Of a stretch of 64,000 nt of DNA, positions 32,667 to 52,474 are shown one piece after another. Each line of letters opens with the position of its first letter. Positions within the stretch are counted from its first letter, which is position 1. Position numbers and translations under genes: made by a program. The notes below the pieces were generated by a model. That model did no database searches, was not told the origin of the DNA, and was given only the letters and a program-made list of their open reading frames with translations. Origin of the DNA: Oceanispirochaeta sp. (GTDB lineage: Bacteria > Spirochaetota > Spirochaetia > DSM-2461); NCBI GenBank assembly GCA_963666275.2, contig CAXXOA010000001.1, forward strand, positions 448,001-512,000, written 5' to 3'.

Positions 32667-32942
32667 TTTTTCCTCTCGTTGTTGTGGATTTAAGGATTGG
32701 AGATTAATTACTATCATCCTTATAGTCATAAAGGATGAGATATAAATATCTGTAATTCAAATTTTTATCCGGAAAAAAGGGGGATTTCCTCGCTTCGAAA
32801 GCAATATATTACGAAAATACTACTATTTTGTGTCTTTTCTGCAGAAACCGGACTCCTGAAGGGATTTCCCGAAAGGGCGTGTCTAAAAGGAAGAGGTCCT
32901 GTATAATTAATAGGAATGCCCAGTCCAAGGAGAATATTTTTT

Positions 32943-34787
32943 ATGAGACATTCCAGAGTCCAGAGAAAGAATCCGGTTCTTTCCGGTATCTTTTTATTAC
33001 TGCTTTCGGTTTTATTTTTCACATCCTGTGCCAGTTCTGAAGCCAGAGCCGCCAGAAGGGGAGACCTGGATGCGGTAAAGGAATTTATCGATGACGGAGG
33101 AGATGTCAATGAACGGCAGAGAGGAGGGATGACCCTTCTTATGTACGCCTCCGCCGGCGGACAGGTCCCTACCATCGATTACCTTGTCAGTGTGGGAGCT
33201 GATGTCCACATGAAAGATGACAACGGACTGACGGCTCTGATACACGGTGCCTCCTCCGGTCAGAACGGTTCGGTCAACTCCCTTCTTTCCCATGGTTCCG
33301 ATGTGAATGCCGTAACCAATTCCGGGCAGAGTGCCCTGCTGATTGCCGCATCCAGTGATTACTCCGCTCTGGTTCAGACTCTGCTGGCCGCCGGGGGGGA
33401 TTTCCGGAAAATGGATAATGCCGGATGGAACCCCCTGCTGAAGGGACTGCAGAAAAGTGCCGGCGATCCATCGGGTATCAATCAGTCTTCCATGCTGCTT
33501 TTTCAGGCCGGCGCGGATTTCCGGGTCGACGAGAAACCTGTGAGCACCGTAGCCTTCACAGCGGCCGGTTCGGGCAACCGGGATGTTTTTCAGCTCCTTC
33601 TGGACCGGGGGCTTAATCCCGGCATGACTGACAGCAAGGGAAACACTCTTCTCCATGCGGCGGCAGCCCGTCCGGAAATGCTTTCCTTCCTTATGGATCT
33701 GGGGCTGAATCCGAATATGCAGAATTCCCAGGGAGAAACCCCTCTGGTCACGGCAGTGCAGAAGGGAAATCAGAAATCCATTGAGACACTTCTGTTCAGG
33801 GGTGCCAATACGGAAATTCCCGATAAAAACAGAAAAACACCCCTCCTTCACGGAGCGCAGAGTTCTAATGTGGAAATCGTGCGGCTCCTCCTGATGAGCG
33901 GTGCCAATCCCTATATTGCAGACAATCAGGGCAACAGCGCTCTTCACCTGGCGGCCGCCGGGGGCAATACCGAAACCGTAAGACTCCTGCTGACAGCGGG
34001 AATCTTTGTGGATGCCAGGAATCTGGCAGGCCAGACCGCCTATGATCTTTCCTTTGAAAATCAGCAGTATGGTGAACAGATCCGGCAGCTCCTGATTTCA
34101 GCCGGTGCCACTGTTCCTGTTGATCCGGCTCAGGCTACCCAGGCGGCACCCGCGACCTCCGGTCCGGCGGGTTTCTCCTCCTCCGCAGCAGCGTCATCGG
34201 CAGGTCCTGCAGGGAGTGCCTCTGCTCCTTCAGCACCATCCTCAGCGGCATCTCAGCCCCAGGCTCCCACTGCGTCTTCTCAGGCTCCTGCAGCATCTAC
34301 ACAGGCTCCTGCGGCAACTACACAGGCCCCGGCAGCAACTACACAGGCTCCGACAGCAACTCAGGCCCCTGCAGCAACTACACAGGCCCCTGCAGCAACT
34401 ACACCGGCACCGACAGCAACTACACCGGCACCTGCGGCTCCTGTCGCCTTAACTTATTCCGTCCGATTCAGCTGGCCCCGGATCAATCCCTCCAGAGCCA
34501 GAGGATGGAACAACAGCGATAAAATCACAGATCAGGCTGTCCTGTCTCTTGTTTATACCGATGGAGGGAACCTTCTCTCTGAAACAGTGACAATCCCCCT
34601 GAAAGGTGTCAATGCCGATGCCTTCTATCTGGACCGGAGAGTTACCATAGAGTCGGGAAGGAGCGTGACAGGGACAGTTTCCATCAGAACCAGAATGGGC
34701 GGGACTTTAACAGGCCGGGTCAGCTCCAGTGCCGGAGAAGGCGGCAGCCTGAATCTCTCTTTCGAATCTTTTCAATACTCCCGATAA
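32943..34787 (+). CDS. Ankyrin-repeat lipoprotein with Pro/Ala/Thr-rich linker and unknown C-terminal domain
   Basis: FTSC lipobox, about 10 ankyrin repeats (G.TPL..A) and QAPAATT repeats. Start uncertain (32916 or 32943). Confidence 0.85.
   Translation: MRHSRVQRKNPVLSGIFLLLLSVLFFTSCASSEARAARRGDLDAVKEFIDDGGDVNERQRGGMTLLMYASAGGQVPTIDYLVSVGADVHMKDDNGLTALIHGASSGQNGSVNSLLSHGSDVNAVTNSGQSALLIAASSDYSALVQTLLAAGGDFRKMDNAGWNPLLKGLQKSAGDPSGINQSSMLLFQAGADFRVDEKPVSTVAFTAAGSGNRDVFQLLLDRGLNPGMTDSKGNTLLHAAAARPEMLSFLMDLGLNPNMQNSQGETPLVTAVQKGNQKSIETLLFRGANTEIPDKNRKTPLLHGAQSSNVEIVRLLLMSGANPYIADNQGNSALHLAAAGGNTETVRLLLTAGIFVDARNLAGQTAYDLSFENQQYGEQIRQLLISAGATVPVDPAQATQAAPATSGPAGFSSSAAASSAGPAGSASAPSAPSSAASQPQAPTASSQAPAASTQAPAATTQAPAATTQAPTATQAPAATTQAPAATTPAPTATTPAPAAPVALTYSVRFSWPRINPSRARGWNNSDKITDQAVLSLVYTDGGNLLSETVTIPLKGVNADAFYLDRRVTIESGRSVTGTVSIRTRMGGTLTGRVSSSAGEGGSLNLSFESFQYSR
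34260..34439 (+). repeat. Intragenic 21-bp tandem repeat (QAPAATT), about 9 degenerate units
   Basis: CAGGC(T/C)CC(T/G)GCAGCAACTACA-like units, including one 18-bp unit. Confidence 0.9.
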
Positions 34788-37754: not shown

Positions 37755-38188
37755 ACAGATCCTCTATCTCCTTAAGGCGATCTCTTCCAAAACAGACTAC
37801 CATGGCCTCTCTTTCTTTTTCTGCCGGCAAAGCCTTTTCAGGACGGATCCTCCGGACAGGATAACTTTTGCAGCAAACTGAGTGTAAAGAGGTGATTCTC
37901 CTTCTTCCTTTGAACAACCATCCCATTGGACAGAAAAACTGTATCCCCCCTAAAATGGTACTTAAATGTATATTTTACGAATACGATAAACGAATATAAA
38001 TACGATGGTATCTATAGAATACGTTTAATATACTTTAAAATATCCGAAAAACATATTTTCCTATTGATTAAAACAGAGGAAATCAGTATTCTGGCAAAAT
38101 ATTTTTTGAATTATGAGTGTATAAATATTCATAATTCCTTCCGGGTAAGTGTCTTTCCCGGTTTTTTATTCTAAGTTACGAGGGTTTT

Positions 38189-38968
38189 ATGTATAAAACA
38201 GCCAAAGATGTTCGACAGGCCTGCAGAGTTCAGGAATGGACAGGCCCTACAGCCGGTCTGGCCAGGGGGCATGTTCAGGCCAACCTGGCTATTCTTCCGG
38301 CCGACTGGGCACAGGATTTTCTCCTGTTCGCCCAGAGAAATCCTAAACCCTGTCCTGTCCTTGAAGTAGGAGAGGCCGGTTCTCCCCTTACAAGTATCAT
38401 TGCGGAAAACGCCAATATCTGCACGGATCTTCCCAAATACCGTGTGTACAGGGACGGAGAACTCACCGAGGAGTGCTCTGACATTTCAGATCTGTGGCAG
38501 GATGACTTTGTTTTTTTCCTTATCGGATGCAGTTTTTCCTTTGAACAGGCACTCCTGGCGGATGGCCTGGAAGTCCGTCATATTACGGAAAATGTGAATG
38601 TACCCATGTACAGAACCAATCTGATGTGCCGGGATGCGGGACGTTTCAAAGAGGTTCCCATGGTTGTGAGCATGCGGCCCTATGAACCGAAAGATGCTAT
38701 CCGCTCCATAGAAATTACCCGGGATTTTCCTGCGGTACATGGAAGCCCCGTACACATTGCCAAACCGGAAATGATAGGCATTTCGGATATTAACACTCCC
38801 GATTACGGAGACGCTGTGACAATTAAAGAGAATGAAATACCCGTTTTCTGGGCCTGCGGTGTTACCCCCCAGTCTGCTGCGGTTGTGGCAAAGCCCCCCC
38901 TTATGATTACCCACGCACCGGGACATATGTTTATAGGAGATCTTTATGACAACGACTTTAAAATCTGA
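38189..38968 (+). CDS. Putative hydro-lyase / D-glutamate cyclase family (DUF1445, YcsI-like)
   Basis: QANLAILP, RNPKPCPVL, GCSFSFE, FWACGVTPQ and THAPGHMF motifs. Confidence 0.9.
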   Translation: MYKTAKDVRQACRVQEWTGPTAGLARGHVQANLAILPADWAQDFLLFAQRNPKPCPVLEVGEAGSPLTSIIAENANICTDLPKYRVYRDGELTEECSDISDLWQDDFVFFLIGCSFSFEQALLADGLEVRHITENVNVPMYRTNLMCRDAGRFKEVPMVVSMRPYEPKDAIRSIEITRDFPAVHGSPVHIAKPEMIGISDINTPDYGDAVTIKENEIPVFWACGVTPQSAAVVAKPPLMITHAPGHMFIGDLYDNDFKI

Positions 38969-39851
38969 GTCTGTGAAGAGTCATGCCGATCAGGCCCGAT
39001 TCATAGAAAATCTGATTCAGCAGGACCCCGGAAAAAGGGGACTGGCAAACTGGGCTGTCCGGAATCATATCCTCCCGGCGACCGAGTCCCTGATGGGGGG
39101 AGAACACATCCTTCTGACTACAGGCTTTTTCATTAAAAATGCGGGGGTTATCGAGACTGACGGACCTCCCGGGGCCATTATCCTGGCGGATGCCCTCATC
39201 AAACTGGGTAAGTCTGTCACCATCATAGTGGATTCCCACTCTGTGGATATCATGAAAGCGGGATTTTCTTCCATCAACAGGGATATTGAGATCATCGGTT
39301 ATGACAGGGATGACAATCTTCTGGAGAAAAATCCTGTCCGCCCCGACACGACCCATTTTATTGCCATAGAGCGTCCCGGTCAGGCTGCGGACGGGAAATA
39401 CTACAATTTCAGAGGAGACGACATCTCTGCGGCTGTGTCTCCGGTGGATCAGCTTTTCCGCTACTGTTCCGGGAAGGGAATCGTGACCATCGGTATCGGC
39501 GACGGCGGGAATGAACTGGGTATGGGAATTGTTTCGGGCAATGTGGATCTCCATGTGGCTCCCGGCAGGGCTTTCAGCTGTAAAACCGATGCCCTCCACT
39601 GTGTGTGCGCCGGAGTCAGCAACTGGGCCGGTTACGGCAAAGCGGCTCTTCTCTCTCTGATGGCGGAAGAGAACCTTCTTCCCAGTCCCGAAGTCTTCGC
39701 CCGTATCCTGAATGCGGTGGTCGATGCAGGGGCGGTGGATGGCGTCAGCGGACGGCGGGAAGCCACTGTGGATGGCCTTGACGCCTCCTGGGAGTTCAAT
39801 CTGTTCGGACAGATGTACGATCTGGCATCCACCGCAGGAAAGGCCTGCTGA
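38946..39851 (+). CDS. DUF4392 protein (D-glutamate cyclase-like C-terminal domain)
   Basis: TTGF...ETDGPPGA, IAIERPG, IGIGDGGNELGMG, GVSNWAGYG and VDG motifs. Confidence 0.88.
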   Translation: MTTTLKSESVKSHADQARFIENLIQQDPGKRGLANWAVRNHILPATESLMGGEHILLTTGFFIKNAGVIETDGPPGAIILADALIKLGKSVTIIVDSHSVDIMKAGFSSINRDIEIIGYDRDDNLLEKNPVRPDTTHFIAIERPGQAADGKYYNFRGDDISAAVSPVDQLFRYCSGKGIVTIGIGDGGNELGMGIVSGNVDLHVAPGRAFSCKTDALHCVCAGVSNWAGYGKAALLSLMAEENLLPSPEVFARILNAVVDAGAVDGVSGRREATVDGLDASWEFNLFGQMYDLASTAGKAC

Positions 39852-39852
39852 T

Positions 39853-40473
39853 ATGAAGATCTATCCGCTGGGAGACTCCTGCCTGTGCTGGTCCCTGTCC
39901 GATGGGATAGACCAGAAGATTTCAGCCAGAATCCTCGCTGTCTACCGCTTCCTCAAAGAGAGCGGCAGGGAAGAGAAGGGGATCCTCGATCTGGTCCCCT
40001 CCTATAATGCCCTGGCTGTGCATTTTGATCCTCTGACAACAGACAGCCAGGCACTGGAAGCCTATGTCTCCTCTGTGTTTGAAAGGGATTTTTCCGATGG
40101 AGCATTGGCCGGGAAAACCGTTGAAATTCCGGTCCGTTATGACGGAGAGGATCTTCAGCGGGTGGCGGATCTGCACAATATGACAGTGAGAGAGGTGATC
40201 GATCGACACAAGGGGAGTACCTTTACTGTTGCCATGGTGGGATTCCTTCCCAACTTTCCCTATCTGATAGGGCTGGATCCGGAACTGGAAACTCCCCGTC
40301 TCGACAGTCCCCGGGTCAAAGTGCCTGCCGGAGCTGTTGCCATCGGAGGCGCCCAGACAGGGATTTATCCGGCAGAATCCCCGGGAGGATGGAATCTCAT
40401 AGGATCCACCGATCCGGCTCATCTCTTATCCATCCAGCCGGGAGATACAGTCATTATGAAGGAGATAGATTGA
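39853..40473 (+). CDS. pxpB: 5-oxoprolinase subunit B
   Basis: PLGDS, LVPSYN, IPVRYDGEDL, GFLPNFPYL and IYPAESPGGWNLIG motifs. Confidence 0.88.
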   Translation: MKIYPLGDSCLCWSLSDGIDQKISARILAVYRFLKESGREEKGILDLVPSYNALAVHFDPLTTDSQALEAYVSSVFERDFSDGALAGKTVEIPVRYDGEDLQRVADLHNMTVREVIDRHKGSTFTVAMVGFLPNFPYLIGLDPELETPRLDSPRVKVPAGAVAIGGAQTGIYPAESPGGWNLIGSTDPAHLLSIQPGDTVIMKEID

Positions 40474-41201
40474 TGCATATCAATTGCGATATAGGAGAAA
40501 GGGGTGCTGACCATCCCGTCGATAGAGAGCTGATGAATCACATCAGCCTGGCCAATATTGCCTGCGGAGGCCATGCGGGAGACAGGGAGAGCATTGAGGC
40601 TTTCCTCGCTCTGGCAAAGAAAAACAAGGTTTCTGTGTCTGCTCATTTATCCTATCCCGACAGGGAGAATTTCGGAAGATTTTCCATGGACATTTCAACC
40701 CGGGATCTTCTGAAGAGCCTGGACGATCAGTTTGCCCTGATGGGCGGGGCGGAAATGGTGAAATTCCATGGGGCTCTCTATAACGACTGCTGGGTAAACC
40801 GGGATCTCTCCAGAGATCTGGCCTCCTGGCTGAACAGTCAGGGTGTAAAGACAGTGGTCACTCCCTATCAGTCCTGTCTGGCCGAAGAGAGCCTGAATCT
40901 GGGAATGGATGTTTTATACGAAGCCTTTGCTGAGAGACGCTATGCCTATGATCCTGAAAAGGGGCAGCTGACCCTTGTCAGCCGGAATCTGGATTATGCG
41001 TCCATTCATGATCTGGATGAGGCCGTTTCCCACGCTATGCATATTCTGACCAATAAGGAAGTGGAGGGGCACATCTCTCTGGCGGATGGTTCGGTCAGAA
41101 AAGAACCCGTTGAGATCAAGGCCGATACGATCTGTATTCATTCGGATTCTCCTATTTCACTCGAACTGGCACAGCGGCTTTCGGGGCAGAACGCAGGCTG
41201 A
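40473..41201 (+). CDS. pxpA: 5-oxoprolinase subunit A (LamB/YcsF family)
   Basis: NCDIGE, ANIACGGHAGD, AHLSYPDRENFGR, KFHGALYN and TICIHSD motifs. Confidence 0.88.
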   Translation: MHINCDIGERGADHPVDRELMNHISLANIACGGHAGDRESIEAFLALAKKNKVSVSAHLSYPDRENFGRFSMDISTRDLLKSLDDQFALMGGAEMVKFHGALYNDCWVNRDLSRDLASWLNSQGVKTVVTPYQSCLAEESLNLGMDVLYEAFAERRYAYDPEKGQLTLVSRNLDYASIHDLDEAVSHAMHILTNKEVEGHISLADGSVRKEPVEIKADTICIHSDSPISLELAQRLSGQNAG

Positions 41202-41202
41202 T

Positions 41203-42060
41203 ATGTTCAAGATCAGAAAACAGGGTTTATACAAAACAGTCTCTCTTCCGGCTTTCGGAAATCAGGACGTGGGGATTACTCCGGGCGGAGCCATGGATCT
41301 TTTCGCCTATCAGACGGGAAATGTACTGCTGGATAACAGGCGGGATGCCCCGGCTCTGGAAATGCTTTTTCCCCCCACCCTGGAATTTGAACAGGACACT
41401 TTTTTTGTCCTGACCGGCTCCTCCTGTTTGGGAGTCCGGCTTTCTGGTCCCGGGGGAGAGCAGACTATCCATCACGGAGAGGTTTCTCTGGCCCGGGCCG
41501 GGAGCGTCCTCTCTTTCGGAAAGAGGAATTACGGATTCCGAACCTACCTCTGCTACCGCTCAGCCCGGGAGCTTTCCGGCTCGGAAAATCCCGTGGGAAG
41601 GAAGAGAGGCTCCATAGGAGAGATTGCCCGCTGGATGGATCCGAAAGGCTATATCCGAGTGGTTGAAGGGCCTGAATATGATTCTTTGAATGATAAAGAA
41701 CTCTTTTTCAGAGAATCCTGGAGAATCTCACCCGAGACAAGCGATATGGGAATGCGGCTGGAAAATCCCTGTCTCCCCCTGAGTGTCTCCATGGGGAATA
41801 TGGTTTCAGAGGCCGTCGCTTCCGGTACGGTTCAGCTGACTCCCAAAGGTCCGATCATTCTTATGAAACACAGACAGACTGTGGGAGGCTATCCCCGTAT
41901 TTTCAATGTCATATCAGCGGATCTGGATCTGCTGGGGCAGGTGATGCCGGGGCAGAAACTCAGTTTCAGAAAAGTCACTCACGAAGAAGCGGTAGATATT
42001 CTGCGTAGGCAGAAAGAAGATATTGAAACATTGCAAAAAAGGTTCCTTGTGGAGGTCTAG
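41203..42060 (+). CDS. pxpC: 5-oxoprolinase subunit C
   Basis: GITPGGAMD, GFRTYL, SDMGMRL, GTVQL and QTVGGYP motifs. Confidence 0.85.
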   Translation: MFKIRKQGLYKTVSLPAFGNQDVGITPGGAMDLFAYQTGNVLLDNRRDAPALEMLFPPTLEFEQDTFFVLTGSSCLGVRLSGPGGEQTIHHGEVSLARAGSVLSFGKRNYGFRTYLCYRSARELSGSENPVGRKRGSIGEIARWMDPKGYIRVVEGPEYDSLNDKELFFRESWRISPETSDMGMRLENPCLPLSVSMGNMVSEAVASGTVQLTPKGPIILMKHRQTVGGYPRIFNVISADLDLLGQVMPGQKLSFRKVTHEEAVDILRRQKEDIETLQKRFLVEV

Positions 42061-42062
42061 TT

Positions 42063-42923
42063 ATGGGAATTTATTATATCGACGGGAAATTTGTTCCTGA
42101 AAATGAAACGACAGTATTGGCGAAGGATATAGCTGTTTTGCGCGGTTATGGTGTTTTTGATTTTATGCGGACATACAACAGGCGTCCCTTTCATCTGGAA
42201 GATCATATCGCCAGACTCCGGAATTCCGCCGATCTGATCGGTCTGGAGCTGAGATGGTCCGATGAGGAAATCGCTCAGGCTGTTTACGATACCATGGATA
42301 AAAATCCCGGGTATGAAGAAGCGAATATCCGTATTGTTGTGACCGGAGGAGAGAGTTCCAACGGTGTTCTTCCCGAAGGAAAGGGAAAGCTCATTGTCAT
42401 GGTTACGGAAAAGCACTCCCTCCCTGACTGGTGGTACACAGACGGCGCTCCCGTTATTACCGTGGATATTGAACGGTATATTCCCGAAGCCAAAAGTATC
42501 AACTATATGAATGCGGTTATGGCTCAGCAGAAAGCTGTCAAAGCCAAGAGCATTGAAGCGATTTATGTCGATAAGGACAACCGGGTTCTGGAAGGAACCA
42601 CAACCAATATTTTCTGCTTCAAAGGCAATAAAATCATCACTCCCGGAAAGGATATTCTCAACGGGATCACAAGAAAAGTCGTCCTGGAAATGGTAGGGGA
42701 TATGTACGATCTTGAAATCCGGGATATCCTGAAGGATGAACTGAAAGATTTTGATGAAATTTTCATTACCGCATCCAACAAGGAGATCGTTCCTGTAAAC
42801 AGAATTGATGATCTTGTGATCGGAAATGGAAAACCCGGTCCCAAAACCCTGGCTGTTATGGATGCCTTCAGAGAGCTGACCGGAGCTTATGGAAAAGCTG
42901 AGCTCGAAGCCGCCGCGGTTTAA
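42063..42923 (+). CDS. PLP fold-IV aminotransferase, probably a D-amino-acid aminotransferase
   Basis: LRGYGVFD, IRIVVTGG, AKSINY, EGTTTN, ILNGITR and TASNKE motifs; adjacent to alr. Confidence 0.85.
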   Translation: MGIYYIDGKFVPENETTVLAKDIAVLRGYGVFDFMRTYNRRPFHLEDHIARLRNSADLIGLELRWSDEEIAQAVYDTMDKNPGYEEANIRIVVTGGESSNGVLPEGKGKLIVMVTEKHSLPDWWYTDGAPVITVDIERYIPEAKSINYMNAVMAQQKAVKAKSIEAIYVDKDNRVLEGTTTNIFCFKGNKIITPGKDILNGITRKVVLEMVGDMYDLEIRDILKDELKDFDEIFITASNKEIVPVNRIDDLVIGNGKPGPKTLAVMDAFRELTGAYGKAELEAAAV

Positions 42924-42926
42924 GCT

Positions 42927-44060
42927 ATGCTTCCTGAGCATGTGATACAGGCGGATATTGATCTGTCTGCTGTTCAGCACAATGTCACTGTTTTAAAGGG
43001 GCACATTGGTCCTGCTGTTAAACTGGCGGCTGTGGTGAAGGCCAATGCCTACGGGCACGGGGCTGTGGAAGTGGCGGAAGCCGCTGTCCTGGGCGGTGCT
43101 GAATACCTTGCGGTTGCAAGGTATTCGGAGGCACTGGAACTGCGGGAAGGGGGCATAAAGGCTCCTGTCCTGATCTTCGGCCATACCCCTCCCGTTCTGG
43201 CAGAGACTATTGCCCGGTACGGCCTGACGCCGGTGGTCAATTCCCTCCAGGAGGCCCGGACGCTCTGTGAAGCGGCGGCTGCCCTGGAGGAAATCATCAC
43301 AGTTCATGTCAAAATCGATACGGGTATGGGCCGTGTGGGCCTGCCCGGCGCTTCTGTTGAAGAGACTGTTGCGGATGTGCTGAGGATCCATGATCTTCCC
43401 GCTCTCCACCTGGAGGGTATCTTTACCCATTTTGCCAATGCTGATTCAGCGGATAAAACTCATGTAAAAGAACAGTTCTCCCTGTTCTCCCGGATTCTGG
43501 ACTCTCTGGAGGAGAGGGGATTGAGGATTCCCATCCGTCATGCCGCCAACAGTGCGGCAACCCTAGAGTTCCCCGAGTCTCATCTGGATATGGTCCGTCC
43601 CGGGATTGTCCTCTACGGGCTGGCCCCTTCGAAAGATGTGGACATGACGCGTCTGCCTTTAAAACCTGTGATGTCTCTGAAGACAAAGATCATTCATCTG
43701 AAAAAAGTCCCGTCGGACTTTAAAATCAGTTACGGCAGTACCCATGTCACTGAGCGATCAACAAGGATCGCCACAGTCCCTATCGGCTATGCAGACGGGT
43801 TCAGCCGGCTTCTCTCTTCAAAGGGATTCATGCTTGTCAAAGGCAAAAGAGTTCCTATTGTCGGAAGGGTCTGTATGGATCTTACCATGATCGATGTCGG
43901 GGATGTTGAAAATGTCAGGGTGGGGGATGAAGTCGTCGTATTCGGTCCCCAGGAGGATCAGTATCTTGCTGCTGATGAACAGGCGGATCTGGAAGGAACC
44001 ATCAATTATGAAGTGGTCTCCACTCTGACATCCAGGGTTCCCCGGGTGTATCTCCGCTAG
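42927..44060 (+). CDS. alr: Alanine racemase
   Basis: AVVKANAYGHG, KIDTGMGR, MVRPGIVLYG, ISYG, GYADG and GRVCMD motifs. Confidence 0.95.
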   Translation: MLPEHVIQADIDLSAVQHNVTVLKGHIGPAVKLAAVVKANAYGHGAVEVAEAAVLGGAEYLAVARYSEALELREGGIKAPVLIFGHTPPVLAETIARYGLTPVVNSLQEARTLCEAAAALEEIITVHVKIDTGMGRVGLPGASVEETVADVLRIHDLPALHLEGIFTHFANADSADKTHVKEQFSLFSRILDSLEERGLRIPIRHAANSAATLEFPESHLDMVRPGIVLYGLAPSKDVDMTRLPLKPVMSLKTKIIHLKKVPSDFKISYGSTHVTERSTRIATVPIGYADGFSRLLSSKGFMLVKGKRVPIVGRVCMDLTMIDVGDVENVRVGDEVVVFGPQEDQYLAADEQADLEGTINYEVVSTLTSRVPRVYLR

Positions 44061-44099: not shown

Positions 44100-44984
44100 T
44101 CACTCCAGAATCAGCTCTTTCAGAAATTTCAGACAGCTGTGAACCGCCGGCTGGTCGGAGAGTTCAAAAGCCTCTTTCAGTGATACCACCTTCCGGAGTC
44201 TCTCCTCTCTTTCATCCCACTGCTTTCTCAGCTTGCTCACCTCGATGGGAAAGGCAAGCATATTGATATAGTCGCTTCCTCTTTTGTAGGGAATCCTGAT
44301 GGGACGATGGGTCACGGTCCCTTCCACTCCGGCCTCTTCGTAGGCTTCCAGCAGGGCCACTTCTTCAAAGGTTTTCCGGCTCTCCTGATGGCCTTTGGGA
44401 AAAATCCAGTGATGGTTGTTCCGTTTCGTTACCAGAATGACCCGGAGTTTTCCTTTCTTCCAGAAGTAGGGAATCGTACCCACAACTCCCTTGTTCATTC
44501 CCGAGGGGAGGAGCTGATGGAGCTGATGAGCATCGATCCTGGCGAGGGAGCGGTTCATATACCTTTTGTCAAAGGTTACCTCTTCGCCGAAATAGGGCGG
44601 CGGCTGGAATAGGGCTGCTTCTTTTTTATCAACGAATTCCACTTCCGCAGTGTACAGCCCCTGCAGGGAGCCCTGGTAGGCATCAATTTCCACTTCCATT
44701 TCCTGCCATAGGGTTGTATAGCGGATTTTCTCAAGACGAAGCCCTTCCGTTGCTTCCCAGAAAAGGTCAAACTGGGACTGGCTTATTTCCGTTTCCAGCT
44801 CCTTCCGGCGGAGACCCGATCCGATTTTCACAGTCTGGTAACAGGTCTTCTCTTTCTGACGGAGCCGGACTTCTCTGTCCTTTTCCAAAGCCAGATATCC
44901 CTGTTTTATCCGGGCTTTCTGTATATATTTCAAATCCTCCGGGAGCGTCTCCAGTAGAAATTTTCTTTCAATTTCATGATTCAT
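44100..44984 (-). CDS. CYTH domain - NUDIX hydrolase fusion
   Basis: EIERKFL, QGYL, EKIRY and AEVEF (CYTH), then WIFPKG...EAYEEAG (Nudix box); AGGAG RBS before ATG 44984. Confidence 0.85.
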   Translation of the reverse strand: MNHEIERKFLLETLPEDLKYIQKARIKQGYLALEKDREVRLRQKEKTCYQTVKIGSGLRRKELETEISQSQFDLFWEATEGLRLEKIRYTTLWQEMEVEIDAYQGSLQGLYTAEVEFVDKKEAALFQPPPYFGEEVTFDKRYMNRSLARIDAHQLHQLLPSGMNKGVVGTIPYFWKKGKLRVILVTKRNNHHWIFPKGHQESRKTFEEVALLEAYEEAGVEGTVTHRPIRIPYKRGSDYINMLAFPIEVSKLRKQWDEREERLRKVVSLKEAFELSDQPAVHSCLKFLKELILE

Positions 44985-45162
44985 ACTCCTACTATATAAA
45001 AAATAAATCACTTGGTCTTTACTTGTCTGCCTGGAAATCTTCCAACATTTCATCTCTTCCTCTCATCAGAGAGGAAATAAGAATCCTTTTCCGGATGGAA
45101 TGTGAATATTTACATAATAATTGGTCTATATATAACTATAAAAATATAATGATAAAAAAATA

Positions 45163-45377: not shown

Positions 45378-45869
45378 GTGAAGTTTAAAACCGCCGTTAT
45401 TTCGCTTGTGTTGGGCCTGCTGTTCTGGCTCGGTCTGAACGGCAGTTCTGATCCGGGAGTACTTATTGCAGGGGCTGCCGTTGCGTTCATCGCGGCGTCA
45501 TTCCATGTGAAATCTCCTGTCCTGGGAGATCTAAGGCTCACACCCAAAGCGCTCTTCGCCTTCCTGGCCTGGATGTTTGTTTTTGCTTTTGAACTGATCA
45601 AATCCAATATCGACGTGATGTTCCGGGTTATCTCTCCCCGGGTAAGGATCAATCCGGCCATTGTGGAAGTCAAAACCAGGCTGAAGTCTCCTCTGGGACG
45701 ACTGGCCCTGGCAAATTCCATCACTCTCACACCGGGAACACTCACGGCGGATATCAGGGATGACAGCCTTTTTATCCACTGGATCGATGCCTCCACCACC
45801 AATGTGGAAGAGGCCACTGATGCTATCGTGGCAAAGTTCGAAAAACATCTGGAGGTGATCTTTGGCTGA
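45378..45869 (+). CDS. mnhE: Na+/H+ antiporter module subunit MnhE (MbxA-like)
   Basis: INPAIVEVKT and LANSITLTPGTLT motifs. Confidence 0.9.
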   Translation: MKFKTAVISLVLGLLFWLGLNGSSDPGVLIAGAAVAFIAASFHVKSPVLGDLRLTPKALFAFLAWMFVFAFELIKSNIDVMFRVISPRVRINPAIVEVKTRLKSPLGRLALANSITLTPGTLTADIRDDSLFIHWIDASTTNVEEATDAIVAKFEKHLEVIFG

Positions 45870-46122
45870 CCAGATTCTTATGATTGCGGTCCTGATCTCC
45901 CTGGGGAGCATCGGGATCATTCTTATCCGGTTTATACTGGGACCTTCTGTTCTGGACAGGGTCGTGGCCTTTGATGCAGCCGGTATCATCGGGATTTCCC
46001 TGATTGTTCTGCTCTCCCATTTTCTGGAAAGGGTCATCTATGTGGATGTGGCTCTTGTTTATGGCCTGCTCAGTTTTATCGGTGTCCTGGTTGTGGCCAG
46101 GTATCACGAAAGGGGGCTTTGA
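45862..46122 (+). CDS. mnhF: MnhF-like subunit (MbxB)
   Basis: GPSVLDRVVAFD motif, 3 TM helices. Confidence 0.88.
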   Translation: MADQILMIAVLISLGSIGIILIRFILGPSVLDRVVAFDAAGIIGISLIVLLSHFLERVIYVDVALVYGLLSFIGVLVVARYHERGL

Positions 46123-46458
46123 ATGGAAATGTTAGGCGCAATCCTTGCCCTGATGGGATCAATAATCTTTCTGATCAGTGCTTTGGGATTAATCCGTATG
46201 CCCGACCTGTACAACAGGATTCAGACGGGAACCAAAGCCACCACCCTGGGAACCATACTCCTTGCGGTGGGGCTCTGTCTTGTTCACCCCGCATGGACGG
46301 GAAAGCTAGTAATCCTGATGCTTTTTATACTGCTGACCAACCCGATCTCCTCTCATGTGGTGGCCAGGGGAGCCCATTACAGCGGTCAGGAAATGACAGA
46401 GAAAACCATTAATGACGCTCTGGCGGAGGAAGATCCTCAGAAGGAGGTGACAGCATGA
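46123..46458 (+). CDS. mnhG: MnhG-like subunit (MbxC)
   Basis: RMPDLYNR, TKATTLG and TNPISSH motifs. Confidence 0.9.
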   Translation: MEMLGAILALMGSIIFLISALGLIRMPDLYNRIQTGTKATTLGTILLAVGLCLVHPAWTGKLVILMLFILLTNPISSHVVARGAHYSGQEMTEKTINDALAEEDPQKEVTA

Positions 46459-46700
46459 CTGTGATTTTTCTTATCGTGGCACTCTTTACGCTTGTTCTGG
46501 CTCTTTATGCGGTTCTGACAAAAGACAGAACCGTGGCCGTCCTGTCGGCGGGAGCTGCCGGGCTGTTCGCTTCGATCCTGTTTATCATGATGGCTGCTCC
46601 GGATGTGGCCATGACCGAAGCGGCCATCGGAAGCGGTTTGACCACATTTATCTTTTTCTTTGCTCTGAAAAAAGTGAAAAGGGGGCAGGGGAATGGTTAG
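46455..46700 (+). CDS. MbhD/MbxD-like subunit (DUF4040)
   Basis: APDVAMTEAAIG motif. Confidence 0.85.
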   Translation: MTVIFLIVALFTLVLALYAVLTKDRTVAVLSAGAAGLFASILFIMMAAPDVAMTEAAIGSGLTTFIFFFALKKVKRGQGNG

Positions 46701-47394
46701 GAAAGGTTTTATTCTTCTTATGATCCTGGCCCTGGGAGCTCTTTTCTGGGATTTTGCAGGGGAATACGCAAGCCGTCAGGTTCTGCCTGAAGTCTCCGCC
46801 CACTATGTGGAACAGGGACCGGAAGAGCTGGGAGCACCCAATGTGGTTACCTCCGTGGTTGTAACCTACCGGGGGCTGGATACCCTGGGAGAAGTGACGA
46901 TCCTTTTTGCCGCCGCAGCGGTAGTGGGTCTTCTGCTCCATCTCAAGGGAAATGAAAACGAAAAAAGGCGGGAGGGGAGTGAGCTGCTGCAGACCGGAGC
47001 AGCCCTTCTGTTTCCTCTGATCCTGCTGTTCGGCGTGTATGTCTTTATGAACGGGCATCTTACACCGGGGGGTGGTTTTCAGGGCGGCGCCATCATCGCA
47101 TCGGCTGTGGTCCTGTCAGCTCTTGCCCATCCCGACAGAAAGGGGAATCACACTGTCCTTTCTCTGATCGAATCCCTCTCCGGGCTGAGTTATGTCATCC
47201 TGGGGGCGGCGGGAGTCTTCCTGACAGTCAATGGGTTTCTGGATAATCGGATCCTCCCTCTGGGCAGGTATGGTTCCCTCTTCAGCGCCGGGCTGATCCC
47301 TGTGATCTACTCTGTGGTGGGGCTCAAAGTCGGTGCGGAGCTCAGCTCCGTGGTGGTTTCTCTGAAAGGAGAACCCGGGGAGGAGAGGGTATGA
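46693..47394 (+). CDS. mnhB: MnhB-like subunit (MbhE/F-type fusion)
   Basis: NVVTSVVVTYRGLDTLGE and GHLTPGGGFQGG motifs. Confidence 0.9.
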   Translation: MVRKGFILLMILALGALFWDFAGEYASRQVLPEVSAHYVEQGPEELGAPNVVTSVVVTYRGLDTLGEVTILFAAAAVVGLLLHLKGNENEKRREGSELLQTGAALLFPLILLFGVYVFMNGHLTPGGGFQGGAIIASAVVLSALAHPDRKGNHTVLSLIESLSGLSYVILGAAGVFLTVNGFLDNRILPLGRYGSLFSAGLIPVIYSVVGLKVGAELSSVVVSLKGEPGEERV

Positions 47395-47741
47395 TAGGTA
47401 ATATTGCCCTTGTAACCGGGGTTCTGCTGATCCTTATCGGACTGTGGGGACTCCTGACCAACAAAGATATGATCCGCATGATTGTGGGATGCTCTCTTTT
47501 TGACCTGGGTGTGCATATTGTGATGCTCAGTGTGGGATACATAAGCGGCGGCACGGCCCCGATTGTCGAAAAGCTTGCAGATCCAGGTAAAACCTATGTG
47601 GACCCGGTTCCCCAGGCTCTTGTGCTGACTGCTATTGTGATCGGCCTGGGAATCACCGCTTTCATGCTGACCTATGCGGTGAGTCTCTATGAAAAAAAAG
47701 GGACCCTGGACATTGACAGGTTTGAGGAGCTGAAATGGTAA
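47391..47741 (+). CDS. mnhC: MnhC-like subunit (MbxG)
   Basis: DPVPQALVLTAIVIG motif. Confidence 0.9.
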   Translation: MIGNIALVTGVLLILIGLWGLLTNKDMIRMIVGCSLFDLGVHIVMLSVGYISGGTAPIVEKLADPGKTYVDPVPQALVLTAIVIGLGITAFMLTYAVSLYEKKGTLDIDRFEELKW

Positions 47742-50700
47742 ATCCGATTTTTCTCATAGTAATTGCCCTGGGTACCGCGTTTCTCCTCGGCCTGTTTCGA
47801 AAAGCCTCTGTATCCCTCCGGTCGGGACTGACCCTGCTGGCCCTGGCTGCCATGACAGCGGTTTCGGCCTTGTGGGTGTATGGTATCTTCTCCGGGAGCA
47901 CCCCGGGAATGGATGTTTTCACAGCGGGCTTCAAACCGCCCCTTTCCATTAGCCTCTCCCTGGGAAAGACAGAGGCTGTTCTTCTTCTGCTTGTCAATCT
48001 GACAGCTTTTATGAGCATGCTGTTCCTCAGAAAAGAGGTTCAATCCACATCGGTCTATATGCTGATGCTGCTGATGGTCTTTGTGACCGGTCTGAACGCT
48101 GTGGTTATGACAAGGGATCTGTTCAATCTTTTCGTGTTTATTGAAATTGTCAGCATCGCCTCTGCAGGTCTCATTGCCCTTAAAAGTGATCTCAGGCAGC
48201 TGAGCGCGGGATTCAAGTTTGTCATTGCCGGGGCCCTGGCCAGCGGATTCATGCTGCTGGGGATTATATTCGTCTACTACAGCACGGGATCCCTCAATCT
48301 GGATGTGATTGCCTCCACCCTGCCTGCGGCTCTGGCCTCCGCCGGGTTTGCGGGAATCTTTCTGGTTTTTATCGGAATGATCATGGAGCTGAAACCTTTT
48401 CCCGTGAACGGATGGGGACTGGATGTCTATGAAGCGGCCCAGCCTCCTGTGGCGGCTCTTGTGGCGGCCGGAACCGGCAGCGTTATGTTCTACGCCTTCA
48501 TTAAAGTTATGGCAGTCCTGGGCGGTCATTTTACAGGTGCCGCCATTGTGATCGGCGGGGCCACCTTCGTGGGCATGAATATTCTGGCCCTGAAACAGGA
48601 AAAGGCCCGCCGGCTCCTGGGATACTCCTCCATCAGCCAGATGGGCCTCCTTGTCATGGCCTACGGTCTTCTGAGGCAGACCGGAGCCCCCCGGCCGGAT
48701 GTTATCCTCTTCGGTCTCCTCATAACCCATGCCCTGGCCAAGGCCGGGCTCTTCTGGATCGCCGGTCTTGTGGAAAAGGAGAATATCCGGGACTGGGCAC
48801 TTATCCGGAGAAATCCGGCGGCTCTACTGGCTATGATCCTGGCTGTCTTCGGCCTCACCGCCTTTCCTCCTTTCCCTTCGTTTTTTGCCAAATGGGAACT
48901 GGTTATGGCCCTGGCGGGAAAAGGAGGATTCGGTTTCATCGCTGTGATTCTGGTGGGATCTTTCCTGGAAGCGGTCTATCTCTTCCGCTGGCTGGGATAT
49001 GCTCTGAAACTGGATTTCAGCAGGGATGAGCCCTTTAATACCTCGTCTCTTTCTGCTGTGCCCTCTCTTCTGTTCGGCCTGATTCTGGTGGGGCTCGGTT
49101 ACTTTATGGGCACCCCCTACGGAATCTCCTGGATCCCCCTTGGGGCGGTACTGGGTTTTCTGGTTCTGGACAGGCTGGATTCCCGGATCAAGAATACCTT
49201 TGCCCTGATCGTGATCGGTGCGTTCGGGTACCTGAACTACACCCACTATATGGGTGACCTTTTCAAGGTGATTTTTGCCGGTGTTTTTATTGGCGGCGCC
49301 TTTCTGACCACCCTGTCGGGATACTACTACAAAGGCCGAAGAGCCGGCTTCCATGCCTCTACCATGTCCATGTTTTTCGGGCTGTTCATGCTCCTTTCGG
49401 CGCAAACGATGCTGCAGTTCTTCTATGCCTGGGAGTTTATGGCCATCGGTTCCTACTTTCTGCTGATCCGGGGAAAGAAATCCATGCCCCACGGCTACAG
49501 CTATCTGATGTTCAGCATCGGCGGTTCCTTTGCCATGCTTATGGGCTTTGCCATGGCCTATCTTTCCAGCGGATCGGCGGGGATGGATGCGCTGCATCAT
49601 ATATCCGTGTATCCCGCCGTGGCCTACTCTCTGCTGCTTATCGGTTTTATGACCAAAACCGCCACCATGGGGTTCCATACCTGGCTTCCCGGAGCTCACG
49701 GTGAAGCTGTCGCGGACATTCACTTTATGGCTTCGGCGATCCTGCTGAAAGCGGGAGTCCTGGGAATCATCTACGTGCTTCTGGGAATGGACCTTAATAC
49801 GGCCTACAGTCACTGGATCCTGCTGACCCTGGGATGGCTGGGAATCCTCAGCTCCCTTATAGGCAATGTGAATGCCGCTTTTCAGGAGAGTGCCAAGAGG
49901 CTCCTGGCCTGGTCCAGTATCGGACAGCTGGGATACATTGTGTTCGGTCTGTCCACCATGAGTCATATGGGCTGGCTCATCGCCCTCTCCCTTTCGATCA
50001 CCCACTTCCTGTACAAGGGAATCCTCTTCCTTATAATCGGGGGGATCTCTCTGAAACTCGGTACACCCATGATGTATAAGATGGGCGGTATGATCCGGAA
50101 AATGCCCTTCAGCTTTCTGGCTGTTCTGATCGCCATTATCACCCTGTCGGGCATTCCTCCCCTGGTGGGATTCACAGCCAAGTGGATTCTCTACAATGTC
50201 ACCGTAGGCAACGGCCTCTATTTTCAGGGCGTTATTGCCTCCTTTGCCGGGCTCGTGGCGTTCCTCTATCTGTTCCGTCTGATCTTCTCCATCTTTCTGG
50301 GACAGCTGAAGGACGAACACCGGAAGGTGGGGGAGATCAATATCTGGTTTCTCATTCCCGTCTATCTTCTGATTACCTATATCATTGTGGTCTCCTTTCT
50401 GCCGGGAACCCTCCTGGGACCCATCGGAGACAAACTGATGGCCTTCTTTCCGGAAAACCCGATTATCTGGGAAGGCTATCTGGCTAAATCGGAACTGGGC
50501 TACTTCAACGGAACCATGATTATGAATGTCTTCATGACCCTCTTTGTGGTGAACTTCCTGATCCTCTTCCTTATGAACAGAAAAAGAGCCCAGAAGGTGG
50601 AACAGTTCAATATCGTCTATGCGGCGGAACGGCCGGCCAGGCCCGAAACCACTCATTTCGCCTACAACTTCTTCGCTCCCTACAGAAGGGCCGTGGGGGT

Positions 50701-50866
50701 ACTGGAATATCCTTTTGTCACCCGGTTCTGGAGCGGCCTCAGTGATATCCTTCACGCCCTGAGCGGTTTCTTCCGGAGGGTTTATACGGGAAACGGACAG
50801 ACCTATCTGCTGCAGATGGTCGTATTTGTGGTCGTCACCTATATGCTGACCAGAGGAGGAGTGTGA
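47735..50866 (+). CDS. Tandem fusion of two NuoL/M/N-type proton-conducting antiporter modules (MbxH-H'-like)
   Basis: Two copies of the module (DLFNLFVFIE / FFYAWE; LLGYSSISQMG / LLAWSSIGQLG; PPFPSFFAKW / PPLVGFTAKW). Confidence 0.88.
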   Translation: MVNPIFLIVIALGTAFLLGLFRKASVSLRSGLTLLALAAMTAVSALWVYGIFSGSTPGMDVFTAGFKPPLSISLSLGKTEAVLLLLVNLTAFMSMLFLRKEVQSTSVYMLMLLMVFVTGLNAVVMTRDLFNLFVFIEIVSIASAGLIALKSDLRQLSAGFKFVIAGALASGFMLLGIIFVYYSTGSLNLDVIASTLPAALASAGFAGIFLVFIGMIMELKPFPVNGWGLDVYEAAQPPVAALVAAGTGSVMFYAFIKVMAVLGGHFTGAAIVIGGATFVGMNILALKQEKARRLLGYSSISQMGLLVMAYGLLRQTGAPRPDVILFGLLITHALAKAGLFWIAGLVEKENIRDWALIRRNPAALLAMILAVFGLTAFPPFPSFFAKWELVMALAGKGGFGFIAVILVGSFLEAVYLFRWLGYALKLDFSRDEPFNTSSLSAVPSLLFGLILVGLGYFMGTPYGISWIPLGAVLGFLVLDRLDSRIKNTFALIVIGAFGYLNYTHYMGDLFKVIFAGVFIGGAFLTTLSGYYYKGRRAGFHASTMSMFFGLFMLLSAQTMLQFFYAWEFMAIGSYFLLIRGKKSMPHGYSYLMFSIGGSFAMLMGFAMAYLSSGSAGMDALHHISVYPAVAYSLLLIGFMTKTATMGFHTWLPGAHGEAVADIHFMASAILLKAGVLGIIYVLLGMDLNTAYSHWILLTLGWLGILSSLIGNVNAAFQESAKRLLAWSSIGQLGYIVFGLSTMSHMGWLIALSLSITHFLYKGILFLIIGGISLKLGTPMMYKMGGMIRKMPFSFLAVLIAIITLSGIPPLVGFTAKWILYNVTVGNGLYFQGVIASFAGLVAFLYLFRLIFSIFLGQLKDEHRKVGEINIWFLIPVYLLITYIIVVSFLPGTLLGPIGDKLMAFFPENPIIWEGYLAKSELGYFNGTMIMNVFMTLFVVNFLILFLMNRKRAQKVEQFNIVYAAERPARPETTHFAYNFFAPYRRAVGVLEYPFVTRFWSGLSDILHALSGFFRRVYTGNGQTYLLQMVVFVVVTYMLTRGGV

Positions 50867-50867
50867 G

Positions 50868-51806
50868 ATGGAATTCAAATACATCCATATCCTGTATGCA
50901 GCCATTACCATCTTTCTGACCATAAACTACGGTCTTCTGCTGCAGGGTATCATAGGAAAAATCTATGCCCGGGTGGGCAAAAGAATCGGCATCAGGATCT
51001 ATCAGCCCTGGATCAATATTATCCGTCAGTGGGTGACCCGGTCATCCATTCATCACGGGGTCATGTACTATCTGGGGCCGGTCTTCCGTTTTACAGGGGG
51101 CGGCGGAATCCTCATCTTTCTGCCTCTGGTGTACGGCGTGCCCCTGTTCTCCTCCTTTGTGGGAACAGGAGATCTGCTGCTGATCCTCTACTTTATGTTT
51201 ATAGGAACCCTGGGGATGGCCCTGGGAGGCGGAGAAGCGGGGCATCCCTATTCGGCCATCGCGGTTACCCGGGGACTCAGCCAGGTGACTGCCGCGGAGG
51301 TTCCTCTGGTTCTGGCTATCTTCTCCATTTCCATCCAGTACGGAACCATGGATATTATGAAGATTGTGGGTGCTCAGCAGGGGAGCGTTCTCAACTGGAC
51401 CCTCTTTACCAACCCCCTGGCCACGGCTGCGGCTATGATCGCCTTTCTGGGATCCATGATGCGGAGCCCCTTTGATGTGGTCATAGCTCCCCAGGAGATC
51501 CCCATCGGACCTCCCACGGAGTATCAGTCCCAGTTTCTGGCTATGCTTATGACCAACAGGACCATCTTTCCGGTAGCAAAGACTGTCTTTTATGTGAACC
51601 TCTTTTTCGGAGGAGTGGCTCTTTATGACAGCTACCTTCTGACGTTTCTTGTTTTCTTCCTCAAGACCTTCTTCGTTTACATGTGGTCTGTGTTCGTCGG
51701 TGTCTCCTTCCCCCGGTTCCGGGTGGAACAGAGTATCCGGTTCTTCCTGAAATGGCCTCTCCTGATCGGAGCGGCAGCCGTTATTGCGGCTCAGATAAGG
51801 TATTGA
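50868..51806 (+). CDS. NuoH-like membrane subunit (MbxM)
   Basis: ARVGKRIG...QPW, PFDVVIAPQEIPIGPPTEY and PRFRVEQ motifs. Confidence 0.88.
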   Translation: MEFKYIHILYAAITIFLTINYGLLLQGIIGKIYARVGKRIGIRIYQPWINIIRQWVTRSSIHHGVMYYLGPVFRFTGGGGILIFLPLVYGVPLFSSFVGTGDLLLILYFMFIGTLGMALGGGEAGHPYSAIAVTRGLSQVTAAEVPLVLAIFSISIQYGTMDIMKIVGAQQGSVLNWTLFTNPLATAAAMIAFLGSMMRSPFDVVIAPQEIPIGPPTEYQSQFLAMLMTNRTIFPVAKTVFYVNLFFGGVALYDSYLLTFLVFFLKTFFVYMWSVFVGVSFPRFRVEQSIRFFLKWPLLIGAAAVIAAQIRY

Positions 51807-51808
51807 TT

Positions 51809-52474
51809 ATGGCAAAGATGAATTATGGAAAACGCAAAGCCGATCTGGAAAGACGGACTGTGACGGGACCCGACGGGGAAACCTTTGAAGTGGATCCCAT
51901 GAAAGACTACTTTTCCCAGGAGCCCCCGAAGGTCTACGAACCTTCCAGGCTGACTCCCATGGAAAAATTCTACAACTGGTGCCGGGCCGAATCCATCTAT
52001 ATCCTGGGGTTCGGAACCGGATGCGGCGCCATCGAGATGCGGCCCCTTATGAGCCCCATGTACGATGCCTACCGCTACGGTATCCACTGGCGTCCCACGC
52101 CCCGGCAGTCCACGGTTTTTGTGATCGGCGGTTATGCCTCGGTCAAAACCATCAAAAGGATTGTCCGCAGCTATGAACAGATGCCCGGACCCAAATACGT
52201 TCTGGCTGTCTGCAGCTGCACCATCAACGGCGGCATGTACTGGGACTCCTACAACACAATCAACCGGCTGGATCACTACATACCAGTGGATGTTTATGTC
52301 ACAGGCTGTATGCCCCGGCCCGAAGCGATTCTGGATTCTGTAGAGACTCTGAAAAAAAGGATCAAAGAGGGACGGGCCGAAGGGCAGAATAAATATGCGG
52401 AAAATTTCGACTGGTACAAGGCGAATCAGAAGAAAATCATAAAAGACTGGGATATGCCCGACTACAACTGGTAA
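51809..52474 (+). CDS. NuoB-like Fe-S subunit (MbxJ)
   Basis: FGTGCGAIE, PRQS, YEQMPGPKYV, CSCTINGG and GCMPRPEA motifs. Confidence 0.88.
   Translation: MAKMNYGKRKADLERRTVTGPDGETFEVDPMKDYFSQEPPKVYEPSRLTPMEKFYNWCRAESIYILGFGTGCGAIEMRPLMSPMYDAYRYGIHWRPTPRQSTVFVIGGYASVKTIKRIVRSYEQMPGPKYVLAVCSCTINGGMYWDSYNTINRLDHYIPVDVYVTGCMPRPEAILDSVETLKKRIKEGRAEGQNKYAENFDWYKANQKKIIKDWDMPDYNW

Follow-up and report, generated by a model that had tools for sequence, protein, structure and literature searches.

A conserved spirochaete gene cassette for D-glutamate metabolism and a possible ATP-driven lactam shunt from D- to L-glutamate

Why should a free-living spirochaete line up both halves of the mammalian D-glutamate cyclase DGLUCY with a 5-oxoprolinase (Pxp), a D-amino acid transaminase, and an alanine racemase (Alr)? 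The question is raised by a seven-gene cassette at positions 38189 to 44060 (+) of the window, by which we mean the whole 64,000-nucleotide stretch of Oceanispirochaeta sp. analyzed here (contig CAXXOA010000001.1; genome 97% complete). An initial annotation of this DNA had proposed that 5-oxo-D-proline is opened to D-glutamate (D-Glu), which the transaminase and Alr then turn into 2-oxoglutarate and L-alanine (L-Ala), with 5-oxo-L-proline opened to L-glutamate (L-Glu) alongside. We arrive at a different reading, to which we give a probability of roughly 0.45: a D-glutamate–managing operon built on a lactam shunt, in which D-Glu would be converted to L-Glu at the cost of ATP.

Results

Seven Tightly Packed Genes Form a Conserved Cassette

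The cassette consists of seven intact open reading frames (ORFs) that run in the same direction on the forward strand, with successive gaps of −23, +1, −1, +1, +2, and +3 bp. The first two correspond to the N- and C-terminal halves of DGLUCY, respectively, and encode a DUF1445 protein (D-Glu_cyclase, YcsI, UPF0317; 38189 to 38968, 259 residues, PF07286) and a DUF4392 protein (GLUCM-like_C; 38946 to 39851, 301 residues, PF14336). Three genes of divergent Pxp clades follow, pxpB (CT_C_D; 39853 to 40473, 206 residues, PF02682), pxpA (LamB/YcsF; 40473 to 41201, 242 residues, PF03746), and pxpC (CT_A_B; 41203 to 42060, 285 residues, PF02626), so that all three oxoprolinase subunits are present. The last two encode a fold-IV aminotransferase (Aminotran_4; 42063 to 42923, PF01063) with an Arg27/Arg90 dyad and catalytic Lys144, and Alr (42927 to 44060, 377 residues, PF01168 and PF00842), an optional member of the cassette. 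All eight Pfam matches score above the gathering threshold, and both the identities and the tight packing agree with the initial annotation. The NCBIfam cutoffs are cleared by DUF1445 (399.6 versus 324) and by Alr (TIGR00492, 400.9 versus 168; the VanT and DadX models score below cutoff) and are missed by PxpB (141.4 versus 145.55), PxpA (183.5 versus 213), and PxpC (149.9 versus 230.2); the aminotransferase clears the cutoff of no NCBIfam aminotransferase model. DUF1445, DUF4392, pxpB, pxpA, and pxpC each occur once in the host genome by tblastn. The spacing alone suggests that the seven genes are cotranscribed.

The gene set is conserved, as the initial annotation required. The complete seven-gene order was found in seven further genomes (loci L011, L012, L013, L030, L033, L034, and L038), among them the same-genus genome G311 (L011) and one outside the phylum, a member of the Thermodesulfobacteriota by its record title (L012); in L038, DUF4392 and pxpB are fused. 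Three more loci (L035, L036, and L037) hold the first six genes and lack alr, which is accordingly absent from 3 of the 11 cassettes readable to their downstream end; the L014 cassette stops at a contig end. The flanks differ among genomes, with no conserved transporter or regulator gene adjoining, and the recurrence of the same gene order in unrelated flanks is therefore more than chance. DUF1445 is present in 9 of 38 family genomes, every time inside the cassette with the transaminase, and DUF4392 in 10 of the 38; a sample of the phylum yielded DUF4392 in 5 of 301 genomes, and a class-wide search around genome G338 in just 2 of 122. At sites in G305 and G308, and at a second site in G307, the transaminase stands in the L035 to L037 flanks without the five upstream genes, indicating that the five are gained and lost together. 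The window DUF4392 is 64% identical to the L012 copy, compared to 53 to 56% for four same-genus copies, which suggests that the cassette has moved laterally, with modest tree support. Deep support in the DUF1445 tree is weak, and we draw no donor claim from it.

We also surveyed the neighbors of metagenomic DUF4392 genes in the best 80 of 524 confirmed loci, 27 of which have 3 kb on both sides. These neighbors include DUF1445 (17 loci), pxpA (7), an OplA-type oxoprolinase (6), pxpC (6), and pxpB (5). Gamma-glutamyltranspeptidase adjoins DUF4392 in 8 of the 80, a class III aminotransferase in 13, and an alpha-amylase–family gene in 11; such other neighborhoods include L073, L078, L094, L100, L109, L112, L114, and L123. 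In genomes G180 and G265, a group I-like D-transaminase, DUF4392, and an ordinary pxpA lie together, with a pxpBC fusion and DUF1445 elsewhere; judged by these sequences, this is a second lineage that has independently paired a different D-transaminase with DUF4392 and pxpA.

The Aminotransferase Has the Motif of Group II D-Amino Acid Transaminases

Arg27 and Arg90 of the cassette aminotransferase align with R28 and R90 of Halhy, and the dyad is present in 10 of 10 aligned cassette copies. Group II, or noncanonical, D-amino acid transaminases are defined by a dyad of this type, R-[RK], spread over motifs 1 and 2 (PMC12429042, PMC8401098). The branched-chain signature (Tyr at the start of motif 1, YxR in motif 2) is absent, and the true ilvE of the host genome, above its cutoff and with the branched-chain motif, lies elsewhere. 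Branched-chain aminotransferases of archaea head the PDB match list, although the motif leads us to reject that identity, and with it the L-branched-chain specificity that would have counted against the initial annotation. Hence it is fairly firm, at the level of motifs, that the enzyme is a D-specific group II transaminase, as the initial annotation had supposed. Halhy (7P7X) and AmicoTA (8AHR) share with it the first-shell Arg27, the second-shell Arg90, and the lack of the branched-chain Tyr motif; it lacks the additional Arg179 of Halhy, and position 36 in its motif 1 is Arg, as in DestiTA. Halhy is reported to favor D-Glu as amino donor (PMC8401098), and a related monomeric fold-IV enzyme is described as performing half-reactions only (PMC11673721). 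Another fold-IV aminotransferase of the host genome (C1:2514608–2515408, L007) also carries the Arg dyad and is 42% identical to the cassette copy. The family assignment of Alr is firm and predicts an enzyme that interconverts L- and D-alanine (D-Ala).

DUF4392 Retains an Acidic Metal Site

Residues E70 and D186 of the cassette DUF4392 align with E59 and D157 of TON_0340, which are reported to be essential for its Mn-dependent activity, a weak phosphatase activity (PMC5132392). E70, D72, E142, D186, E190, D265, and D276 are invariant in 28 of 28 DUF4392 sequences, and the acidic Mn site of the cassette protein is intact as judged from the alignment. Mouse DGLUCY (C14orf159), which holds both domains in one protein, is reported to convert D-Glu to 5-oxo-D-proline; D-Glu builds up in the knockout mouse, mammals excrete 5-oxo-D-proline, and invertebrates are said to keep DUF4392 and not DUF1445 (PMC5339696). 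Because of the metal-site match, the activity of mouse DGLUCY, and the retention of DUF4392 in invertebrates, we infer by analogy that DUF4392 carries the cyclase site. DUF4392 is tied to D-amino acids in three settings: beside the group II transaminase of the cassette, beside the group I-like enzyme of G180 and G265, and at L045:5603–8834, where a homolog of D-aminoacylase/N-acyl-D-glutamate deacylase, DUF1445, and DUF4392 follow one another with gaps of 2 and 8 bp and no pxp gene was found within 8 kb. Fusions of DUF4392 to PxpB number four among the 120 matches listed, that of L038 being a plain read-through of neighboring genes. A complex prediction for PxpB and PxpC with a DUF4392 partner scored 0.22 against a mark of 0.32 and carries no evidential weight.

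DUF1445 Is a Candidate 5-Oxoproline Racemase

Domain fusions were counted by hand in 120 listed of 146 long DUF1445 homologs, with domains checked on a subset. DUF1445 is fused to DUF4392 in 56 of these 120, to hydantoinase/OplA domains in 23, and to PxpC or PxpBC in 7; the DUF1445–oxoprolinase fusions without DUF4392 number 30. These fusions, which lack DUF4392 and involve oxoprolinases of two unrelated types, make 5-oxoproline a likely substrate or product of DUF1445. Seven listed homologs (P0144, P0157, P0167, P0168, P0171, P0176, and P0177) have the order DUF4392, MurD-like N-terminal and middle domains, DUF1445, with no match to the Mur ligase C-terminal domain in the two scanned; by domain content, these connect the cyclase halves to a D-Glu–ligase scaffold. 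A further 12 of the 120, including P0148, P0200, and P0243, join DUF1445 to the DNA-binding domain of O6-methylguanine methyltransferase, one of them named from a protist.

Among 264 DUF1445 homologs examined, Cys114 is conserved in 251 of the 260 that cover the position and Cys223 in 236 of 241. In the DUF1445 model (predicted local distance difference test score [pLDDT] 97), each follows the end of a strand and precedes the start of a helix. Partial ferredoxin-like matches, each to one lobe, break at about residues 112 and 223 of the model; the protein thus has two lobes in the model, and each crossover between them holds one Cys. The structure search returned the family's own 2PIF (Z 36.2) and, as nearest other fold relative, the NrpR domain 3NEK (Z 9.3, root mean square deviation 4.1, 167 residues aligned), the sole listed matches to reach Z 5; the glutamate racemase and diaminopimelate epimerase/proline racemase folds are not among the listed matches. 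The NrpR domain binds 2-oxoglutarate. A Cys pair is described as the usual base pair of cofactor-independent amino acid racemases (PMC8142540), and the two conserved Cys at helix starts that characterize these enzymes are also found in DUF1445. Its modeled anatomy would thus permit a racemase with Cys114 and Cys223 as the pair, although that activity is the weakest step of our proposal. We put at somewhat under an even chance the view that DUF1445/YcsI is a two-Cys 5-oxoproline racemase on a fold shared with the NrpR domain and unlike those of known racemases, and that DUF4392 alone cyclizes, so that with the oxoprolinase and the transaminase/Alr pair D-Glu would be driven to L-Glu by ATP.

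The Cassette PxpABC Belongs to Divergent Clades

D6, E9, H34, H58, K97, H99, and H223 of the PxpA core are invariant in eight cassette and three ordinary PxpA sequences; we take these residues to be metal ligands. Cassette-type PxpA proteins from 10 genomes score 165 to 187 bits on PF03746, compared to 283 to 324 bits for three ordinary copies from the same family. In G337 (G337:C1:441569–441810), a pxpA appears to be in pieces, with an internal TAG. The PxpC clade comprises 334 matches among 2,433 candidates, of which the 120 listed are 44 to 71% identical apart from the cassette protein itself. Relative to 13 outgroup sequences and Escherichia coli YbgK, a Gly/Ser/Thr-rich loop is missing from the clade, which has Asp for Arg at 181 and His for Asp at 223. 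At 17 columns where at least 80% of the outgroup agree, no more than 15% of the 120 listed members retain the residue; the last of these columns is an artifact of fused DUF1445 tails. ATP hydrolysis by the enzyme is attributed to PxpB and PxpC (PMC8453981), and the PxpC changes may therefore matter. The same divergent pxpBAC genes stand alone in G316 (L131:7389–9578), with no DUF1445, DUF4392, or transaminase gene beside them, and the cassette Pxp is the sole oxoprolinase found in its genomes. Because of these two observations, ordinary L-lactam activity is favored for the cassette Pxp, the second suggesting that it handles the L form.

A Lactam Shunt Would Drain D-Glu Rather than Supply It

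The equilibrium constant for ring opening, [glutamate]/[5-oxoproline], is given as ∼0.035 for the L pair (PMC13274462). We computed from this a cost of +8.3 kJ/mol, which applies to either enantiomer. The uphill opening and the build-up of D-Glu in the knockout mouse together indicate that the cyclase normally runs toward the lactam, which makes the ATP-free opening of 5-oxo-D-proline in the initial annotation doubtful. In a cell with the glutamate racemase MurI, the cyclase should therefore drain D-Glu into 5-oxo-D-proline and not supply it.

MurI is indeed present. The host genome has a murI above cutoff, and murI matches occur in 37 of 38 family genomes, including all nine cassette holders. 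Thus, the idea that the genes allow salvage without glutamate racemase is not supported here. The host has a second alr as well, and we rejected the cassette as a MurI substitute in this genome. The host also carries alanine dehydrogenase and, on contig C2, a DgcN/DgcA-like pair that scores below cutoffs. Runs of threonine synthase-like, DgcN-like, and DgcA/dipeptide epimerase-like genes lie at host C2:563835–567425 (L130) and at L011:13261–16447; the run in G311 lies 153 bp downstream of the cassette alr and is codirectional with it. Neither dgcN nor dgcA is among the seven cassette genes. No alr besides that of the cassette was found in G223, which has murI, or in G338. No murI or Asp/Glu racemase match was found in G338 and no murI match in G339, the completeness of both genomes not being given.

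The activities and their direction are what we propose for these genes, the racemase step above all. Alr would interconvert L- and D-Ala, and the group II transaminase would exchange amino groups between 2-oxoglutarate and D-Ala or other D-amino acids, yielding D-Glu. DUF4392 with its Mn site, perhaps aided by DUF1445, would cyclize D-Glu to 5-oxo-D-proline, a downhill step modeled on DGLUCY; DUF1445 would then racemize the product to 5-oxo-L-proline through Cys114 and Cys223 as an acid–base pair. Finally, PxpABC, by its family and despite its divergence, would open 5-oxo-L-proline to L-Glu with ATP and make the route one-way (net, D-Glu + ATP + H2O → L-Glu + ADP + Pi). Such a shunt would capture D-amino acid nitrogen and give the D-Glu pool an overflow valve, and the same genes would repair spontaneously formed 5-oxoproline of both hands. 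The transaminase and Alr can be housekeeping enzymes in some hosts; where alr is the sole copy and murI is missing, they would also supply the cell wall with D-Ala and D-Glu.

Weighing the Alternatives

Several observations weigh against the shunt. Neither a fold-IV aminotransferase nor alr was found near DUF4392 in any of the 80 best metagenomic loci, indicating that the transaminase/Alr link is specific to the cassette clade. No racemase or epimerase is among the listed DUF1445 matches from VIA-align, Foldseek, profile-versus-PDB, or Atlas searches, a result that does not exclude homology. Mouse DGLUCY holds both domains and has 5-oxo-D-proline as its reported product (PMC5339696), and the animal-like fusions among those listed keep both Cys. 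PxpC has lost residues kept in 11 to 12 of the 13 outgroup sequences, leaving L-specificity and even ATP use not assured for the clade. Running alongside MurI, or alongside Alr and the transaminase, an unregulated shunt would burn ATP in a futile cycle, and the cassettes share no adjacent regulator or transporter gene. Lastly, a route from D- to L-Glu would be partly redundant with MurI, alanine dehydrogenase, and the DgcN/DgcA-like pair.

Each of the other readings fares worse in our judgment. The pathway may not be closed at all: 5-oxo-D-proline would be a dead-end overflow product as in mammals, which excrete it (PMC5339696), or the DUF pair would act on another gamma-D-glutamyl or lactam substrate, with Pxp serving ordinary L-lactam repair and the five-gene block merely preceding a housekeeping transaminase, and in places alr. 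A transaminase in the syntenic position with the five genes absent (G305, G308, and the second G307 site), the optional alr, and the gamma-glutamyltranspeptidase (8 of 80) or unrelated genes beside other DUF4392 copies fit this picture; it is nevertheless unlikely, given that all nine DUF1445-bearing family genomes (9 of 9) hold the gene in the cassette with the transaminase and that a second lineage has independently set a different D-transaminase beside DUF4392 and pxpA. A little less probable still is an ATP-driven D-oxoprolinase, in which the Pxp clade would be D-specific or accept both hands, or PxpBC would activate the D lactam for hydrolysis by DUF4392 with Mn; combined with a DUF1445 racemase, this would use ATP to make D-Glu from either lactam and would thereby stand in for MurI. 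The low PxpA scores (165 to 187 versus 283 to 324 bits), the clade-wide swaps and loop deletion of PxpC, the four DUF4392–PxpB fusions among the 120 listed, the weak Mn-dependent phosphatase activity reported for TON_0340, the seven MurD-like fusions among the 120 listed, and the lack of a murI match in G338, of completeness not given, could all be read this way. However, the same divergent pxpBAC occurs in G316 unaccompanied by DUF or transaminase genes, the Pxp that goes with DUF1445, DUF4392, and a D-transaminase in G180 and G265 is of the ordinary type, at least one of the fusions (L038) is mere read-through, and murI is present in 9 of 9 family cassette genomes.

We regard as the least likely the direction favored by the initial annotation, in which the split cyclase runs backwards without ATP from 5-oxo-D-proline to D-Glu, the transaminase and Alr draw the flux on to L-Ala and 2-oxoglutarate, and Pxp deals with the L lactam on its own. 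All of its steps are reversible, the two DUF genes overlap by 23 bp and are fused in 56 of the 120 listed long homologs, and the group II enzyme Halhy favors D-Glu as donor (PMC8401098). The opening is, however, uphill by ∼8.3 kJ/mol, so that D-Glu must stay below ∼3.5% of the lactam in MurI-bearing cells; no importer is conserved in the cassette; the 30 listed DUF1445–oxoprolinase fusions without DUF4392 are left unexplained; and 3 of the 11 fully read cassettes lack alr. Of that chain, the gene identities, the D-transaminase motif, and the conservation hold, while the racemase-free claim is unsupported in this genome and the direction of ring opening is doubtful. An oxoproline epimerase among the DUF proteins, which the initial annotation gave as an alternative, fits better than its main chain.

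Flanking Features of the Window

A 434-bp AT-rich gap precedes DUF1445, in which candidate sigma70-type promoter sites, consensus matches only, lie at 37927 to 37956 (10/12) and 38106 to 38135 (9/12) on the forward strand. Across the 8.4-kb region, there are 19 such matches, compared to 8.5 ± 3.1 in shuffled sequences. Terminator-like sites in the region are at chance level (8 versus 9.2 expected), and the hairpin 3′ of alr is ordinary (z −0.92). A convergent gene (44100 to 45053, −) terminates 39 bp downstream of alr; it encodes a C-terminal NUDIX domain and an N-terminal part that has no Pfam match and that we presume to resemble a CYTH domain. Farther away, an ORF at 32916 to 34787 (+) encodes an ankyrin-repeat protein followed by a long low-complexity linker of Ala/Thr/Pro/Gln repeats. 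The run of small and large membrane proteins at 45378 to 52474 (+) presumably corresponds to Mrp/Mnh antiporter subunits and then hydrogenase/complex I-like subunits. A 587-residue ORF at 58180 to 59943 (−) has a C-terminal Aminotran_4 match and is, we assume, a PabB–PabC fusion.

Discussion

The cassette is a real, conserved, and apparently undescribed module of known families. Among the top-ranked matches listed in searches of the open literature, no paper joins these genes or describes an oxoproline racemase. The DUF1445 and DUF4392 domains of DGLUCY, and the acidic metal site of the latter, recur in the cassette; DGLUCY is, however, one polypeptide, whereas here two overlapping genes are embedded with Pxp, a transaminase, and alr, and the DGLUCY product is reported to be excreted in mammals, unlike in the proposed shunt (PMC5339696). 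Split DGLUCY homologs of gut bacteria have already been tabulated, six split and none full-length, in passages that give no cassette context (PMC12547972). Group II transaminase and Alr chemistry has a precedent in the established MurI-independent supply of D-Glu by Alr and a D-amino acid transaminase (PMC8401098), which the last two cassette genes match; the host, however, has murI and a second alr.

The Dgc pathway is described as an irreversible, energy-costly, indirect racemization of D-Glu (PMC12363236). Its enzymes, the N-acetyltransferase DgcN and the N-acetyl-D-Glu racemase DgcA, parallel the shunt in masking the amine as an amide, racemizing, and hydrolyzing. The two routes have no genes in common, and the mask is an acetyl group in Dgc and an intramolecular lactam, with ATP, in the shunt. 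The Bacillus subtilis operon, which we take to have the order pxpA-ycsG-ycsI-pxpB-pxpC, shares with the cassette the three Pxp subunits and the YcsI/DUF1445 gene. In contrast to that operon, the cassette has divergent Pxp proteins that fall below the NCBIfam cutoffs, has no transporter or regulator, and adds DUF4392, the D-transaminase, and alr. The linkage of pxp to ycsI as such is known (PMC10448178).

If the proposal holds, a DUF1445 racemase would explain both the presence of ycsI in B. subtilis-type pxp operons and the division of labor inside animal DGLUCY, each half of which may be assigned its own task. The analysis also flags a divergent Pxp clade that the family models miss. More broadly, it offers testable functions for YcsI/DUF1445 and DUF4392, two widespread families that take their names only from a mammalian fusion, and a proposed bacterial fate for 5-oxo-D-proline that would constitute a new means of recycling D-amino acid nitrogen.

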